Sequence record: NC_052655.1
DNA length: 64,000 bases
Reading direction: 5' to 3' (one strand)
Source: Escherichia phage alia
Below, in pieces: positions 3,782 through 46,570 of the stretch (the stretch's first letter is position 1; every line of letters begins with the position of its first letter). A program made the translations under genes and the position numbers. The notes beneath the pieces were generated by a model that worked only from the letters and a program-made list of their open reading frames with translations, was not told the DNA's origin and made no database searches.

Positions 3782-4729
3782 TTAGAAACAGTGCAGGAAG
3801 TTTCGACCATACTGCAAACCAATAGGAGCAAATGGGATATCATCATCGAAATCTTGAACAACAGGTTCTGGTTCTTTCGGTGCTGGCTCTTTCTTCTCTA
3901 CTTTTTTAGTTTCTTTCTTAACTTCTTGTACCGGGGTAGACATTCCACGGATAGCAGCAGCTACTTTATCAGACAAAGCAAGAACTTCACGAGCAGCTTC
4001 AATAATCTCTTCTGCCGTTACAGTTTTACCTGTATGATCACGACAAGCGTTAAGAATTGCGTGTCCAACTGAAGCACCAAGATCATAGTCAGTCACATCA
4101 ACGCCACGATCTTTAGCAATTTCTGCTTTCAGAGTAACAGTTGCAGATTGTACCACACCAGCCAAGTCGAAAGCATCACCTTTCACACCAGCACGTAGAA
4201 GCTCCAGAGCGCCGTTTACAGCGTGTCCTGTTTCAATCCCTACGGTATCACGTTTTTTGTAGTTAGGCTTGCTACCTTCGTTATTAGATGGCTTATTTCC
4301 ACCTTTTGAAGAAGATTGTGCTTGCTGAACACCTTCTGTTGAAAGAATAGTGATTTTACCTTTAGAGGAATTGTAGTATGTTTTGCCATTCCATTCAGAA
4401 GGTTTAACATCCATAGTTAGTTCTACACCTTTTTCGATAGTAACCCACTTATCACCATCTTTAACTTGCAGGTTTTCATGTTCTGGGTGCAGTTTAACTT
4501 CACCTAGGCTAACCCAAACACCTTTATCATCAGCACCAGCACCTTTCTCTTTAATAAGCAGGGATGCTTTGTGAGTTGATTCAATTTTCTTATCTGGCTG
4601 ACCTGCAACCTTAATATAAGAGACTTTCATTTCATCAAACTTATCCAGTTTGACATATTCAACGATACCTTCAGCCCAGAATGCTTCTTTTTTAGTACGA
4701 CGGTCGATTTCAGAATTAATTACTGGCAT
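3782..4729 (-). CDS. SSB-like protein with acidic 'DFDDDIPF' motif
   Basis: 'QDFDDDIPF' matches the E. coli SSB C-terminal tail, but here it is followed by 15 more residues; the N-terminal region is not obviously an OB fold. Confidence 0.45.
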   Translation of the reverse strand: MPVINSEIDRRTKKEAFWAEGIVEYVKLDKFDEMKVSYIKVAGQPDKKIESTHKASLLIKEKGAGADDKGVWVSLGEVKLHPEHENLQVKDGDKWVTIEKGVELTMDVKPSEWNGKTYYNSSKGKITILSTEGVQQAQSSSKGGNKPSNNEGSKPNYKKRDTVGIETGHAVNGALELLRAGVKGDAFDLAGVVQSATVTLKAEIAKDRGVDVTDYDLGASVGHAILNACRDHTGKTVTAEEIIEAAREVLALSDKVAAAIRGMSTPVQEVKKETKKVEKKEPAPKEPEPVVQDFDDDIPFAPIGLQYGRNFLHCF

Positions 4730-26475: not shown

Positions 26476-27636
26476 TTAGTAAGAACGACCACCAAACACA
26501 TACTCTGTGTAGTTTTTACGTTCTTTGTTTTTAATAACAACTTCAATGTTGTTACCTTTATCATCGGTGAACATAAAGTGATAACCGTCACCACCCATTG
26601 TACGGATGTGTTTTTCATCATACGTCAGCAAGATACGGTCTACACCCCAGTAGTAGTCACCTTCTTCATCTTTATCTTCTACGGTAACAATCCCTTCCAT
26701 TTCAGGAAGATGCTCTTCACCTAGTTTATGGTCTACAGCTACAACATAACGATTACCGCTAAACAAACCTTGTGCTGTCATACCGTCAATATCGGTATCT
26801 GCCGAAACATCTCCTGTACGATCTACACCGTTAACTTTCAGAAGTTTAACCTCTTTTGCAGCATAGCGGTGTTCAGTAATACTGATACCCATTAATGCAA
26901 GTGCATCAGAGAATTTGTCATTAGGATAACGGTTAAGTTCTTCTACTAATGACTGAACAATATCAAAGTTCAAGTCCACGGACAGATTATAAAGCGTTTC
27001 AAAATCTGGTAAAAAGGCTTTGTTCTCCAGATTTTTAGCCAGATAATCATCCATAGTAGCTTTAGGTAGTTTCTTATAGCTAAAGCTGTAGAAAATACGG
27101 CTAGGGCGATTACGCAAAAATTCTGATACATAACCATCATTTTTAGTCAATACAAACAGCTTGTCATAGCCACCAACACCATCCAGCAGGGTAAGCAAAC
27201 CATCCTGTGCATCTTTTTCAGCATACAGTTTATCAAATTCATCGATCATAATCATCACAGGTTGTGTGATTTTAGACATAAAATTGATAAAGCCTTCACC
27301 ATTAAAAGCACTACCGATAGAAATAGTAGGAATACCCATTTCACGAAGAGCAGAAGACAGCATTTTAGCTTGCAAAGTTTTACCGCTACCCTTCGTACCC
27401 TCAAGGAGAACACCTGTGTTTTTACCTTTGCGGCTAAGGAACGTCTTGATAATACGTTCTGATTTATCATCAGTATCACCGTATGTTACTGAAGGGACTT
27501 CCATATCGTTTTTAGGATACAGGAAGAACTCACCACTTTGAGTAACACCTACACCAAAAGTTCCTGCTGGAATTTCTTCGATATCTGTACCAGACTTCTG
27601 ACGCAGGAAGATTTGATTGCCGAATACTGTAAACAT
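26476..27636 (-). CDS. P-loop NTPase (AAA-like), paralog A
   Basis: Walker A 'GTKGSGKT', Walker B 'MIMIDEFD'; about 50% identical by eye to the plus-strand ORF at 41617-42744. Confidence 0.7.
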   Translation of the reverse strand: MFTVFGNQIFLRQKSGTDIEEIPAGTFGVGVTQSGEFFLYPKNDMEVPSVTYGDTDDKSERIIKTFLSRKGKNTGVLLEGTKGSGKTLQAKMLSSALREMGIPTISIGSAFNGEGFINFMSKITQPVMIMIDEFDKLYAEKDAQDGLLTLLDGVGGYDKLFVLTKNDGYVSEFLRNRPSRIFYSFSYKKLPKATMDDYLAKNLENKAFLPDFETLYNLSVDLNFDIVQSLVEELNRYPNDKFSDALALMGISITEHRYAAKEVKLLKVNGVDRTGDVSADTDIDGMTAQGLFSGNRYVVAVDHKLGEEHLPEMEGIVTVEDKDEEGDYYWGVDRILLTYDEKHIRTMGGDGYHFMFTDDKGNNIEVVIKNKERKNYTEYVFGGRSY

Positions 27637-41616: not shown

Positions 41617-42744
41617 ATGAAATACACTATTTATGGTGATATTGTAAGTGTAAATAAAGATATGGGCGTGGAATCTAACTATCTTCCACCTGGATTCTAT
41701 ACTGTTAGTCGTGATCCCCTTGGCAATTACTTTTTAAGCCGTGGTAATCTAACAGGTGTACCGGATGTTCTGTATGGTGAAACAGAAAAACGAGCAAATC
41801 ACGTTATTCGTACATTCCATCGCCGGAGTGCACAAGGTAAAAATACAGGTTTGCTCCTGACAGGAACTAAGGGCAGTGGTAAAACTATGTTAGCCAAACT
41901 CATTAGTCGTGACCTTGTAGAAGAAGGTATTCCAACTATTATGGTTACTCAAGCCTACAGTGATGCTAATTTCATTGAACTTATTAGCAAGATCACCGAC
42001 AAAGCAGTGATTATTTTTGACGAATTTGATAAAGTATATGAGAAGAAACAAGATCAAGAAGCACTTCTCACTTTGTTAGATGGTACTGGCAGTGGTAATA
42101 AACTGTTTATTCTAACTAAAAACAGTGGCTTTATCTCTGAATTCTTTCTAAATCGTCCTAGTCGTGTGTTTTATAATTTTAATTATGATAAAATCTCACT
42201 AGAAACTATGATTGACTATTTAGATAAAAACCTGGATAACAAAGCACACTTTGATAATTTCCAAAGACTTTGGGATGTAAGTTTAGAGTTGTCCTTTGAT
42301 GTGATCCAAGGTATAGTAGAAGAACTTAATTTCTACCCTGATTTATCCTTTAAAGAATGCATCTCTATGATGGGCGTTTCTTTAGGTGGTGGTAATAAAT
42401 GGGATATTAGCAGTGTTGTTATTAATGGAAAACTTCAGAAAGTTAGCTGGGTATCTAGTTGGCATAACTTCACACCTGCAATCTTTTTAGGTGGTTCGTG
42501 CACACTGGACGTGTACTTGTCATCTCCAAGTGATGCAGACTCTAAAGAAGCCCTTGCTAATAGCTCTTACGTGGTTTTTGATGATGAAGGCGATGCTCGA
42601 ATTCCATTGAATGCGACAAAAATGAAAGCAGATCTTATTACAGGCGGTAAAATCGTTGTGTTTAGTGATGATCCAGAAGATTCTTTCCGTATTGTTCTGG
42701 AACCAACTATCACCAATGGTGCAACTTTGGCAAGTGTGTTTTAA
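41617..42744 (+). CDS. P-loop NTPase (AAA-like), paralog B
   Basis: Walker A 'GTKGSGKT', Walker B 'VIIFDEFD'; collinear similarity to 26476-27636 ('LLTLLDG', 'NRPSR.FY', 'DVIQ.IVEELN'). Confidence 0.7.
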   Translation: MKYTIYGDIVSVNKDMGVESNYLPPGFYTVSRDPLGNYFLSRGNLTGVPDVLYGETEKRANHVIRTFHRRSAQGKNTGLLLTGTKGSGKTMLAKLISRDLVEEGIPTIMVTQAYSDANFIELISKITDKAVIIFDEFDKVYEKKQDQEALLTLLDGTGSGNKLFILTKNSGFISEFFLNRPSRVFYNFNYDKISLETMIDYLDKNLDNKAHFDNFQRLWDVSLELSFDVIQGIVEELNFYPDLSFKECISMMGVSLGGGNKWDISSVVINGKLQKVSWVSSWHNFTPAIFLGGSCTLDVYLSSPSDADSKEALANSSYVVFDDEGDARIPLNATKMKADLITGGKIVVFSDDPEDSFRIVLEPTITNGATLASVF

Positions 42745-42763
42745 GTAAGCCAGCAAATAAAAA

Positions 42764-42783
42764 CCCGCTCCGGCGGGTTTTCT
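42764..42783 (+). terminator. intrinsic terminator hairpin (CCCGC-tccg-GCGGG-TTTTC)
   Basis: GC stem plus T-run 20 nt after the ATPase stop. Confidence 0.55.
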
Positions 42784-42818
42784 TGTATTGATGCCAGATT
42801 TAATAAGAGGAGTAATAG

Positions 42819-44216
42819 ATGACAGCACCAAAATCATGGGAACAATATAAAGAAGAATTAACACCCCTTGCTAAAAATCACAATATTCAAATCCTGGGTT
42901 ATGTTGGGGAATGGAAAGGGAGCAAGACTAAACTTAAACTATCTTGCCCTGATCATGGAGAGTGGGAAAGTACCGTAATCACTAACTTTAAAACTAGAGG
43001 CGGTAAATGTTGCCCCGATTGCAATGGTCATAGAAAAGTAACAGAAGAAAAGGAATGTATTTCCCTTGTTGATGTTGCTAAAGAAAGAGGGTTTACTTTT
43101 ATAGGTCTTGCCGAGGAGTGGCGAGGTGTACGAACAAAAATTCGCATAATTTGCCCTAAACATGGAGAGTGGAACACCACAAATATTATTAGTTTTAGGA
43201 ATGGACATGGTTGTCCGACATGTGCAAGTAATAAGCCGTTAACATGGGAAACAGAATTACCGATCTTGGAAGAGATAGCACAGAAGAAGGGGTATCAAGT
43301 GTTAGGGTACGTTGGAGAATGGAAAAGAAATAAAACAAAACTTGATTTGTTGTGTCATTGTGGTTATAAATGGGATACTACAAGTATTAACAGTTTTAAA
43401 CGTGGTAGTGGTTGTCCTTTATGTGGGTATAAGAATACAGGTAAGTCACAAACAATATCCGACGATCAACATATTGCAGATTTCTTTTCTACTGGTGTCT
43501 TCCCTGAAGGCACTATCTTCACTAACACAGGAGCACGGGGGAAAGGATGTGGGCATATTATCTGGATGGTTGAATGTCCTGTTTGCTCTCATGATGAATA
43601 TGTTCAAGCAGGTGTTTGCGATGGTAAATTTTACTCTAAAGGATATAACCTTAAACGAGGACACATGCCGTGTCGTTGTGGAAACTATCATTATACAGAA
43701 GACCAGATCACCTACAAAGTGAGAAAGGAAGTAGAGAGTAAAGGGTATATTTGGGTAGGATGGATCAGTAAACCTAGTGCAAAAGGCAAGTTTAAATATT
43801 GGTGCAATAAACACGGGGAGCAAATTGGAAATGCTGATAGTTTGATACATAGGGGAGCTGGGTGTCCACAGTGTGCTGGTCATAGTCAACAGCAATTATA
43901 TATTAATATTGTTAAAGATAATGATATTATAGTTGCTCTTAAGTTTGGTATAGCTAAAGATAGCGATAGACGATTAAACCGTCAAAATAACCATAATATG
44001 TTTTTTATGGAGCGTATTTGTTTATATGATTTTAGTACAACGAAACAGTGTAAGGCTGCTGAAAGAGCTATAAAGAAAAAATTAAAAACTGGTATCTTAA
44101 CAGCAAGAGAGTTGAAAGACGGTTATACAGAAACAGTAAGTGTTTCTGATTTGGAAAATCTTCAAAAAATTATTACACAATATGGTGGCAAATTAGTATA
44201 TAGTAAGGAGGTGTAA
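42819..44216 (+). CDS. Zn-ribbon repeat protein, possible GIY-YIG/T5orf172-like C-terminal domain
   Basis: Four to five tandem ~45-aa repeats of the form 'GYVGEWKG.KTKL.L.CP.HGEW......F..G.GCP.C'; C-terminus 'ALKFGIAKDSDRRLNRQ'; GAGGAG RBS. Confidence 0.45.
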   Translation: MTAPKSWEQYKEELTPLAKNHNIQILGYVGEWKGSKTKLKLSCPDHGEWESTVITNFKTRGGKCCPDCNGHRKVTEEKECISLVDVAKERGFTFIGLAEEWRGVRTKIRIICPKHGEWNTTNIISFRNGHGCPTCASNKPLTWETELPILEEIAQKKGYQVLGYVGEWKRNKTKLDLLCHCGYKWDTTSINSFKRGSGCPLCGYKNTGKSQTISDDQHIADFFSTGVFPEGTIFTNTGARGKGCGHIIWMVECPVCSHDEYVQAGVCDGKFYSKGYNLKRGHMPCRCGNYHYTEDQITYKVRKEVESKGYIWVGWISKPSAKGKFKYWCNKHGEQIGNADSLIHRGAGCPQCAGHSQQQLYINIVKDNDIIVALKFGIAKDSDRRLNRQNNHNMFFMERICLYDFSTTKQCKAAERAIKKKLKTGILTARELKDGYTETVSVSDLENLQKIITQYGGKLVYSKEV

Positions 44217-44768
44217 ATGCGGATTACTGACAAGTATGTATTCTTCTTCTCAGCAAAAGATGAATTTAGCAACTGGTATCTATCATCTTTTATTGAACCT
44301 TTAGCACCCAAGTATAATAATTCTATTACAAATTCTGTTGAATTTACTTGTGTGGAACAATATATGATGTGGAGAAAAGCATGTTTATTTTATGATTACA
44401 ACATTGCATCCTCTATTTTAACCGGAGATCTAAGATATACAGGAGAAAAAGAACAAGCATATTATAAACGACTAGGCAGATTAGTTAAAGATTATGATGA
44501 AGATACCTGGACTTCTTTACGGGAGAAGATTGTCAAGCGTGGTTTGTATCTTAAATACACACAAAATGAAGATCTCAAAAATAAACTTATCGCTTACGCA
44601 GATAAGGAGTTTGTAGAAGCAAGCCCTTATGATTCTATTTATGGTATCAAAATGGGGATGTGGGATCGGGACGTGGAAAATAAGGATTGTTGGAAAGGAC
44701 AAAATCTTTTAGGAAAATGGCATACAGACCTTGCTGTTTATCTAAAAGCACAATCTGATATTTCCTGA
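44217..44768 (+). CDS. NADAR/YbiA-family protein
   Basis: 'FFFSAKDEFSNWYLS', 'EQYMMWRKACLF', 'LGRLVKDYDEDTW', 'KYTQNEDLKNKLI', 'FVEASPYDSIYGIKMG' follow the YbiA/DUF1768 pattern. Confidence 0.65.
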   Translation: MRITDKYVFFFSAKDEFSNWYLSSFIEPLAPKYNNSITNSVEFTCVEQYMMWRKACLFYDYNIASSILTGDLRYTGEKEQAYYKRLGRLVKDYDEDTWTSLREKIVKRGLYLKYTQNEDLKNKLIAYADKEFVEASPYDSIYGIKMGMWDRDVENKDCWKGQNLLGKWHTDLAVYLKAQSDIS

Positions 44769-44983
44769 TATTTTGAAAATTTTTATTTCTATAAAAAGGG
44801 GTGTGGGTTTCATGTACGGAAATTCACCCTCTGCACAGTATATCCAGAGTAAGTAGTATTCTGTACTCTGTTAATAAAGTATTTAATTTGTTTGTTGGAT
44901 TATGGTAGCTGATCTTTAAAAGGCATACTATCTCTTAACTACTACTTATAACAGAACAGTAAAATCGTTTTTATAAAAAGGAC

Positions 44984-45191
44984 AAAATTATTTAAAGTTT
45001 TTACAGATTTTTGGATACAAATTTTGAAAATGAAAAGTTCAAGTTTGGTCAAAATTATTTAAAGTTTTTGTACGTATTTCTATCCAGATTTTGAAAATGA
45101 AAACTTCAATTTTTTAAAAATTCCCCAGTTTATTTAAAGTTTTTTTGCCTTTTTCCGTAGAAAAATCAAAAATGAAAAGTTCAATTTCGTG
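44984..45191. repeat. three tandem ~67-bp direct repeats
   Basis: Units starting near 44984, 45051 and 45129, each '(A)AAATTATTTAAAGTTTTT-(N20-30)-GAAAATGAAAA(G/C)TTCAA'; AT-rich, non-coding. Confidence 0.7.
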
Positions 45192-45208
45192 TTTTTATAG
45201 GTATGCGT

Positions 45209-45319
45209 ATGATAATCATTCTCATTTGTAAATGAGAATCATTATCATTTAATTATGTAAGTGATAATCATTCTCAGTAAGAGAATGAGAATCATTAGCA
45301 AATGAGAATTTTCTCATTT
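45209..45319. promoter_or_regulatory. cluster of three Fur-box-like palindromes
   Basis: 'TGATAATCATTCTCATTTG-TA-AATGAGAATCATTATCA', 'GATAATCATTCTCA...GAGAATGAGAATCATTA' and 'AATGAGAA-TT-TTCTCATT'; core GATAATCATT matches the Fur-box half-site. Confidence 0.45.
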
Positions 45320-45580
45320 AGAGAATAACGCGCAGGGGCGGTGTTTGTCTCGCGCTCCCGTGTCCCCTCGCCATACAATAAGAATAGCATAACCAACAAC
45401 AAAAGCAAGCGATTATTTTTATCTTTACATTTCTTTACAAATTTATTTTAGACGAGCTACCGGCGATCAACCTTCCAACCAGTGCCCCCTGGTATGTTAG
45501 CCCCGCCTTTACGCCGTGGGGGTGGCGCTTCCTCTTCTGTATGTAAAACAGTATAAGCCCGATCCCTGGGCTTGTCAAGA

Positions 45581-45847
45581 TTATTTTTTGTTTTCTTGCC
45601 AGGATAGGACACCTAACCAAAAATACATGTCGCCCCGCGCCCCTGGCGGGATCTTGCTTTCCCCGCCGCCACTGCAAGCCCATAGATAACCATTAGCGAA
45701 CGGATCAAAATGATCTATTTCTTCCACCTTATAATCGCCCAGGTTGAGAACGGTTTCAACCTTTAAGCCCGTTGCGCTTGCTACCTGGTGCACCGTGCCG
45801 CCTTGCCAGCCCAATGAGTGCATGAGATGTAAAGGAGTATTTGTCAT
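45581..45847 (-). CDS. candidate small ORF inside a GC-rich island
   Basis: 88-aa ORF ('MTNTPLHLMHSLGWQGGTVHQV...') in a clearly more GC-rich stretch (about 45330-46100); several overlapping minus-strand ORFs make the coding call uncertain. Confidence 0.3.
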   Translation of the reverse strand: MTNTPLHLMHSLGWQGGTVHQVASATGLKVETVLNLGDYKVEEIDHFDPFANGYLWACSGGGESKIPPGARGDMYFWLGVLSWQENKK

Positions 45848-46217
45848 GGTATCGCCCTTTCTTTGATGTGCGCCCTGGTTGGCGCGGTAGAAAGATAATA
45901 GCCGTTTCCTTTATAGATAGCAAGCAAAAAAGAAATGAAAAAAGATTAAAAAAATGGTTGACGTTCCTCACCTGGTAGCGTAGTATTCATCTTGTCGAGG
46001 GGGGCGAGGCACAACGACAATAAACAAAAGGAGGGCGCAATGTAGGACGGGCAAAGGTGAGGATCTCCACAATCCACCGTCACAATAACATTACTTATAA
46101 AAGGTTGATAACGATGATCAAGAAAGAAAACAGCTTGACGGTTGGAACGATTAACGCTATCATTCTTGCCGTTCCATTTTGGGTTGTAGTAGCGGTTATT
46201 ATTTTTAAAAAATATTC

Positions 46218-46275
46218 TTGACAACGTTTTTTAATCTGATAAGATGTATCACATAGGGCGGCAATAGTGCCGCTC
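46218..46275 (+). promoter_or_regulatory. promoter + 5' stem-loop module
   Basis: TTGACA-N16-TAAGAT followed by 'CACATAGGGCGGCAATAGTGCCGCTC' (stem GCGGCA/TGCCGC), 22 nt upstream of the ATG. Confidence 0.6.
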
Positions 46276-46297
46276 ATAACAGAAGAGAGAAATAATC

Positions 46298-46570
46298 ATG
46301 GCATCATATAGCGCATCAATGATTGTAATGGGTATCACTGGTAAACCTATGCGCGGTGGCGGATCTTTCGCTAATATTAATATTGATGGACGTTTATCCC
46401 TGGACGCAGCGATCACAGTGGCACGGGAAACGTTTAAAAAAGAATGTAATTTCAATAAACAAGATTATCTCGGCTTCGTTATTGAAAAAACCGCGCGCTT
46501 TGTTGATTATAAAAGCCCGAAAATGATCGACACTACACTAAAGGCGCAAGATGTAGCTTTTTTGCTTTAA
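46298..46570 (+). CDS. hypothetical small protein (cassette gene)
   Basis: 90 aa; RBS GAGAGA. Confidence 0.5.
   Translation: MASYSASMIVMGITGKPMRGGGSFANINIDGRLSLDAAITVARETFKKECNFNKQDYLGFVIEKTARFVDYKSPKMIDTTLKAQDVAFLL

Follow-up and report, generated by a model that had tools for sequence, protein, structure and literature searches.

The window analysed here is a stretch of 64,000 nucleotides (64 kb) from Escherichia phage alia, a phi92-like coliphage of the genus Justusliebigvirus, and has a G+C content of 37.7%. Within a block of plus-strand genes lies the 465-aa open reading frame at 42819–44216 that a preliminary description had singled out, and it is present exactly as given there. The gene and its immediate surroundings comprise the following features.

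41617–42744 (+), gene for an AAA ATPase, the upstream neighbour (Pfam AAA; PHROG 2376, E=7e-108)
42760–42781 (+), strong hairpin resembling an intrinsic terminator, in the ATPase/endonuclease spacer (9-bp stem with 5 GC pairs, T-rich tail)
42805–42812 (+), Shine-Dalgarno-like AAGAGGAG, 6 nt before the ATG, as read from the sequence
42819–44216 (+), whole endonuclease gene, from the ORF list (ATG start, 465 aa), with five CapR-type zinc fingers and a T5orf172 nuclease domain
44217–44768 (+), NADAR/YbiA-like gene, the downstream neighbour (Pfam NADAR, E=2e-36)

Over its 3.2 kb the locus shares about 93% identity with other Justusliebigvirus genomes, such as those of PaulScherrer, inny and phi92. 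A database entry 100% identical to the alia protein is named "endonuclease [Escherichia phage alia]", whereas UniRef names the identical protein "CapR homology domain-containing protein". The whole protein is a full-length match to, and thereby a member of, PHROG 681 'endonuclease' (E=4.1e-92, aa 1–462 on profile positions 89–545 of 576). Neither a tblastn search nor searches with HMMs for the repeat and the nuclease domain described below found a paralogue of it within the 64-kb window.

The spacer between the ATPase and endonuclease genes is 75 nt long, and the phi92 annotation has an AGGAG ribosome-binding site at the same place as the alia AAGAGGAG. At its other end the endonuclease stop codon directly abuts the NADAR ATG (GGAGGTG TAA ATG), and because there is no gap between them the NADAR ribosome-binding site lies inside the endonuclease gene. 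The NADAR gene also matches the NCBIfam riboflavin-intermediate N-glycosidase domain and PADLOC PDC-M42C (E=1e-34), and in Phapecoctavirus two small genes are situated between it and the endonuclease gene. A diverged second copy of the AAA ATPase is present at approximately 27017–27428 on the minus strand (64.5% nt identity over 417 nt). The roughly 1.5 kb at 44800–46300 contain short ORFs only (82–92 aa at most), several terminator-like hairpins, and tandem repeats at 44983–45113 (period 67) and 45215–45276 (period 29); this segment has no tRNA or Rfam match, tRNA and Rfam scans of the endonuclease neighbourhood likewise returned nothing, and inny has a repeat_region annotated at the corresponding position. 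Near 40 kb the GC skew changes sign and coding moves from the minus to the plus strand, and this is therefore a point of divergent transcription about 2.8 kb upstream of the endonuclease gene.

Five CapR homology domains in tandem

Pfam PF21817 (CapR homology domain) matches the whole protein in five stretches (E=4.7e-48, 161.7 bits), the best of which lies in R3 (aa 150–203). Every repeat unit was also scanned alone against the gathering threshold of 24.2 bits, and all five exceed it and are CapR homology domains by this measure.

42819–43043 (+), R1, CapR homology domain, aa 1–75; 40.3 bits alone; putative zinc ligands C43, H46, C65 and C68
43044–43244 (+), R2, CapR homology domain, aa 76–142; 41.6 bits alone; putative zinc ligands C112, H115, C132 and C135
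43245–43460 (+), R3, CapR homology domain, aa 143–214; 54.3 bits alone; putative zinc ligands C179, C181, C199 and C202
43461–43697 (+), R4, divergent CxxC...CxC variant, aa 215–293; 47.1 bits alone; putative ligands C253, C256, C285 and C287
43698–43892 (+), R5, CapR homology domain, aa 294–358; 27.1 bits alone; putative ligands C329, H332, C349 and C352

The preliminary description had four to five repeats of about 45 aa. The tandem repeats are real, but they number five and their period is 65–79 aa, the figure of about 45 aa being that of the conserved core, which runs from the GxxxEW strand to the CPxC knuckle. Their periodicity is formally detectable in the pairwise scores, in the per-unit Pfam scans above and in the DNA itself, where direct repeats are spaced 201, 207 and 408 nt apart, equivalent to 67, 69 and 136 codons. 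When scored by Smith-Waterman alignment against 500 shuffles, R1, R2 and R3 resemble one another strongly (z=19–24) and R5 resembles R1–R3 less closely (z=5–10). R4 is not detectably similar to the other repeats in this pairwise comparison (z at most 3.5) and a MAFFT alignment of the five repeats misaligned it, so that its membership comes from the profile, which alone recognises it. A BLASTP self-comparison of the protein gave the identity hit alone.

The W, K, HGEW and CPxC positions that had been ascribed to every repeat are found in R1–R3, in the form of the motifs GEWKG..TK, CP[DK]HGEW and CPxC, and partially in R5 (CNKHGEQ and CPQC), whereas R4 has CPVC...CRC in their place. From R1 to R5 the first knuckles read CPDH, CPKH, CHC, CPVC and CNKH, and the second knuckles, 20–32 residues further on, CPDC, CPTC, CPLC, CRC and CPQC. 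The candidate ligands thus follow the pattern CxxH...CxxC in R1, R2 and R5, CxC...CxxC in R3 and C253xxC256...C285xC287 in R4, and all five repeats have the two putative zinc-ligand pairs, approximately 20–30 residues apart, that a CapR homology domain requires. Among 44 homologues the putative ligand columns are invariant or nearly so and are among the most conserved, with C199 and C202 of R3 and C329, C349 and C352 of R5 invariant.

In AlphaFold models each unit is predicted to consist of one long helix, three strands and a short helix. A full-length AF2 model has a pLDDT of 86 and a pTM of 0.46, with high confidence inside the units and low confidence in the linkers, and this combination of a low pTM with low-confidence linkers fits an arrangement of independently folded beads on a string. 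The Zn-ribbon-like, DNA-binding repeats of the preliminary description are accordingly recognisable as CapR homology domains, and by analogy with CapR they would be expected to bind zinc and DNA; in CapR of the phage satellite PLE, DNA binding by the zinc finger needs the Cys pairs, as judged from Cys-to-Ser mutants (PMC8096241).

The C-terminal domain

The remainder of the protein, which had been suggested to be GIY-YIG/T5orf172-like, makes up a single feature.

43893–44216 (+), T5orf172 domain with a predicted GIY-YIG nuclease fold, and stop codon, aa 359–465; invariant Y361, K375, G377, R385, E415 and E438

HMM searches bear out the suggestion. With the T5orf172 model (PF10544) the complete protein reaches 20.1 bits and its isolated C-terminus 22.4 bits (E=1.8e-4), so that the cut-off of 20 is exceeded, though marginally; the related MUG113 model, at 17.4 bits, stays under its own cut-off of 22.3. 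Structure prediction gives the same picture, of finger beads followed by a domain with the GIY-YIG fold. A model of aa 294–465 (44 sequences) has a mean pLDDT of 95, with R5 above 90, and structure comparison confirms that the predicted C-terminus has the alpha/beta fold of the GIY-YIG nucleases. A Foldseek search of the model against the PDB returned nothing significant, and a profile search of PDB sequences found no match at E<0.1 for either domain, and thus no solved structure of a CapR-type domain.

Y361, K375, G377, R385, E415 and E438 are invariant in the 44 homologues, which extend down to 25% identity, and the conserved Tyr of the motif and the putative catalytic Arg and Glu of a T5orf172 domain are all present. 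The Glu that would be equivalent to E75 of I-TevI and E180 of Odn was matched by eye. At the second Tyr of the GIY-YIG motif the sequence is K-F-G instead, and hhalign comparison of the nuclease-domain alignment with the I-TevI catalytic domain, using an approximate I-TevI sequence, gave nothing (probability 1.9%) and is a lead only. Conservation within the protein is highest in the nuclease domain (dN 0.03). Cleavage by such a domain has a precedent in Odn of phage ICP1, which cleaves DNA in vitro and requires the conserved Glu, the E180A mutant being inactive, and is the only T5orf172 member for which we found in vitro cleavage shown in the literature (PMC8263062).

Alleles and distribution among phages

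Comparison with PaulScherrer, inny and phi92 reveals a marked discontinuity at the gene. The ATPase protein is 100% identical in these three phages and the NADAR protein 98–99% identical, but the endonuclease protein is merely 84, 84 and 67% identical respectively. In 100-nt windows the flanks are 94–100% identical and the nuclease domain 90–99%, while identity within R4–R5 is 51–89%; the corresponding dS values are 0.06–0.18 for the flanks, 0.10–0.16 for the nuclease domain and 0.4–1.7 for R4–R5 (0.9–1.7 for R5), so that R4 belongs to the hypervariable segment. As dS in R4–R5 is far above that of the flanks, this segment has a different history, which points to recombination or the persistence of old alleles and not to fast evolution or relaxed constraint alone. 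The DNA-binding region is thus a mosaic, and the gene departs from its conserved flanks in the manner of a free-standing homing endonuclease gene. No donor of the divergent R4–R5 segment was found among 50,697 phage records, where the best match is about 83% identical. The G+C content is 28% in the nuclease segment (43893–44216) and 42% in R4–R5 (43461–43892), compared with 37.7% for the window, and this split within the gene fits separate histories of the two parts. The ATPase protein adjacent to the endonuclease is identical in the three relatives despite differences of 6–10% at synonymous sites between the genes.

The number of modules also varies. Orthologues fall into length classes of about 263, 325–332, 390–408, 465–477 and 547–562 aa, the four larger classes having 3, 4, 5 and 6 fingers respectively, and the frames are full-length in all orthologues examined. 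The VEcB/EmilieFrey alleles have 3 fingers and that of inny has 4. The allele in inny is without exactly one 69-aa (207-nt) unit, spanning the interval between the first knuckles of R1 and R2, and retains an R1/R2 chimera. Its junction lies within a shared TTGCCCT...CATGGAGAGTGG motif, at the TTGCCCT of the R1 homology, and the two partners of this in-register indel are short homologies.

42940–42958 (+), short homology in R1, left partner of the one-repeat indel; codes for SCPDHG; direct-repeat family D3, with its partner 207 nt away
43147–43165 (+), short homology in R2, right partner of the one-repeat indel; codes for ICPKHG

Over the whole gene dN/dS is 0.30–0.42, and the protein is therefore under purifying selection.

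Homologues are present in 566 phage records from many host genera. In all six loci inspected, three from Justusliebigvirus and three from Phapecoctavirus, the homologue is directly 3' of the ATPase gene, and the 52 records with at least 80% coverage of the 3.2-kb locus are in keeping with this; the homologues in Phapecoctavirus nieznany and ZCKP1 are 37% identical only. The genomes of the closest relatives each have a single tblastn place. In more distant relatives synteny breaks at the position of the endonuclease gene, and in two Stephanstirmvirinae, Citrobacter phage Tr1 and Klebsiella phage phi1_175008, the ATPase gene and terminator are followed by unrelated genes, although here the whole downstream module differs and this is not a clean presence/absence polymorphism. 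A hairpin equivalent to that of alia is situated 3' of the ATPase gene in relatives without the nuclease gene (two loci, at approximately 4625–4665 of one and 4640–4670 of the other), and because gene content changes immediately 3' of it, the ATPase terminator forms the border between a conserved and a variable module.

None of the inspected loci of close relatives is an 'empty site'. The presence of the gene at every one of them is atypical for an actively cycling homing endonuclease, and fits a fixed and possibly domesticated gene equally well. Escherichia phage WPEC1 (PV659873.1, 57223–65002) was considered as an empty site and rejected, as the region consists of inverted and shuffled pieces of the normal locus, those after the ATPase including an endonuclease-gene fragment in opposite orientation; this arrangement is probably a misassembly and is unfit for the purpose.

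Interpretation and relation to known systems

We propose that the product of the gene is probably an endonuclease that cuts DNA in a sequence-specific manner, with targeting by the finger array. It would belong to the T5orf172 phage homing endonucleases, which form a branch of the GIY-YIG superfamily. The five CapR homology domains, the T5orf172 domain and the match to PHROG 681 together support, on sequence grounds, the homing-endonuclease-like protein envisaged in the preliminary description. From what is known of the family, such a protein would bind zinc and DNA, cleave at a target site, and home. In this model the five CapR-type modules, independently folded and on flexible linkers, would jointly read a long DNA target, and the array would tether the C-terminal domain so that it cuts nearby. 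If a related phage with a sensitive sequence took part in a mixed infection, the break made in its genome would be repaired from the gene-carrying genome, leading to spread of the gene and of neighbouring markers, and specificity could evolve through the loss, gain and exchange of whole finger modules.

It is also possible, though we consider it rather unlikely, that this is a domesticated, non-selfish nuclease, fixed in the phi92-like lineage for the benefit of the phage, with variable fingers that track changing targets. The benefit might lie in the exclusion of co-infecting phages, in cutting a satellite or mobile element as Odn does, or in cutting host DNA. The finding of a homologue in the same place at every one of the six loci inspected in Justusliebigvirus and Phapecoctavirus, and the agreement of the 52 records with at least 80% coverage, argue for such a role, as do the intact frame, the purifying selection and the invariant putative catalytic residues. 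A hypervariable DNA-binding part beside a conserved nuclease part is suggestive of an arms race; however, mutual conversion of homing alleles with different specificities predicts the same pattern. Odn is a precedent, and inny and muut, which belong to the same genus as alia, are proposed carriers of Odn-like RepA_N-T5orf172 nucleases (PMC8263062, PMC10448857). Against domestication, 5,426 complete E. coli genomes contain no nucleotide-level homologue, including in a satellite or prophage, so that nothing indicates an exchange of domains between phage and satellite of the kind by which Odn and CapR were recognised, and the endonuclease protein has no NCBIfam or PADLOC match. Only tentatively could one picture a fixed weapon of phi92-like phages, each bead reading a short sub-site, with the fingers retargeted by cassette swapping and by in-register loss and gain of repeats against competing phages or mobile DNA.

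That the protein is a DNA-binding regulator, a CapR-like repressor that uses the finger array alone while its nuclease domain is dead or vestigial, seems improbable, notwithstanding that a transcriptional repressor served to define the CapR domain (PMC8096241), that I-TevI doubles as an autorepressor (cited in PMC8096241 and PMC10448857), and that the gene is closely preceded by a terminator and abuts the start of the NADAR gene. CapR has lost the T5orf172 domain and the alia protein keeps it; moreover, as the nuclease-motif residues are invariant in the 44 homologues and the nuclease domain is the best conserved of all, unlike a decaying domain, the regulatory protein that had been offered as an alternative is less likely as a sole function. 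Most improbable of all is that the gene is a functionless, decaying remnant of a homing endonuclease gene that is being lost. Such genes commonly degenerate once fixed (PMC13619312), and repeat number does differ between alleles, but every orthologue examined has a full-length frame, dN/dS lies well under 1, the indels preserve both the reading frame and the repeat register, and both the putative zinc ligands and the nuclease motif are conserved.

Considered as a homing-type endonuclease, the alia protein is an ordinary and already annotated member of the published T5orf172 family, and every feature described here is an instance of the descriptions in Barth et al. 2023 (PMC10448857), a survey of T5orf172 homing endonucleases whose accession tables include inny. 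In that survey zinc fingers of the CapR, DUF723 or DUF4379 type are found in most T5orf172 homing endonucleases, often in tandem as "beads on a string", DNA-binding and nuclease modules are swapped between T5orf172 genes, and the genes are found at boundaries of genetic exchange (PMC10448857). One allele of ICP1 gp174 has an in-frame 228-bp deletion that arose by recombination between repeats (PMC10448857), the counterpart of which is the 207-bp, one-repeat difference between alia and inny. The family, its repeated zinc-finger architecture and its recombination-driven evolution have thus been published already (PMC10448857, PMC8096241, PMC8263062). What this locus adds is a clean natural series of alleles in a well-sampled coliphage group, with 3, 4, 5 or 6 fingers and one hypervariable two-finger segment within near-identical flanks. 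The series could provide a tractable E. coli system for asking by what rules CapR-type fingers recognise DNA, whether homing by T5orf172 genes actually occurs, and how the number and identity of fingers shift target specificity.

The ICP1 proteins Gp174, Gp165, Gp121, Gp53 and Gp130, like the alia protein, have one or more N-terminal CapR-type fingers followed by a C-terminal T5orf172 domain. The alia protein finds ICP1 genomes by tblastn at E of about 1e-24 to 1e-25, in up to five places per genome, and the T5orf172 proteins of ICP1 are about 29–31% identical to it over part of its length. Unlike the ICP1 homing endonucleases, that of alia has five fingers and is present as a single copy in the 64-kb window; its gene follows an AAA ATPase, whereas those of ICP1 are near capsid, terminase or nrd genes. 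The T5orf172 homing endonuclease genes of Vibrio phage Helene, of which six repeat regions have been compared (Fig. 6 of PMC10448857), also have a tandem zinc-finger array before the T5orf172 domain. There is evidence that their DNA-binding region and nuclease domain have different histories, which is paralleled by the identities of R4–R5 and the nuclease domain in alia, although host and phage lineage differ and the likeness is one of description, not of direct sequence comparison (PMC10448857).

CapR of PLE, a Vibrio cholerae satellite, represses the capsid operon of ICP1 and belongs to the same PF21817 family, its CxxC...CxC pattern being that of R4 (PMC8096241). CapR is a repressor with no nuclease domain, however, while the alia protein has five fingers and an apparently intact T5orf172 domain, and four of these fingers differ from CapR in having a C-x2-H or C-x-C first knuckle together with a CPxC second knuckle. 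Odn (Gp88 of ICP1) shares the T5orf172 catalytic domain with its conserved Arg and Glu, but is targeted by a RepA_N domain derived from its satellite, and not, as the alia protein would be, by zinc fingers; it has been domesticated as a weapon against satellites. I-TevI has its nuclease at the N-terminus, the reverse of the order in alia, and the DNA-binding part of I-TevI and the T4 Seg proteins consists of a zinc finger, a minor-groove helix and a helix-turn-helix in place of a repeat array. Slx1 and At-HIGLE are nucleases of eukaryotic DNA repair whose substrate is branched DNA and which work together with partner proteins, and at 14–15% identity their likeness to the alia nuclease domain is one of fold and not of function.
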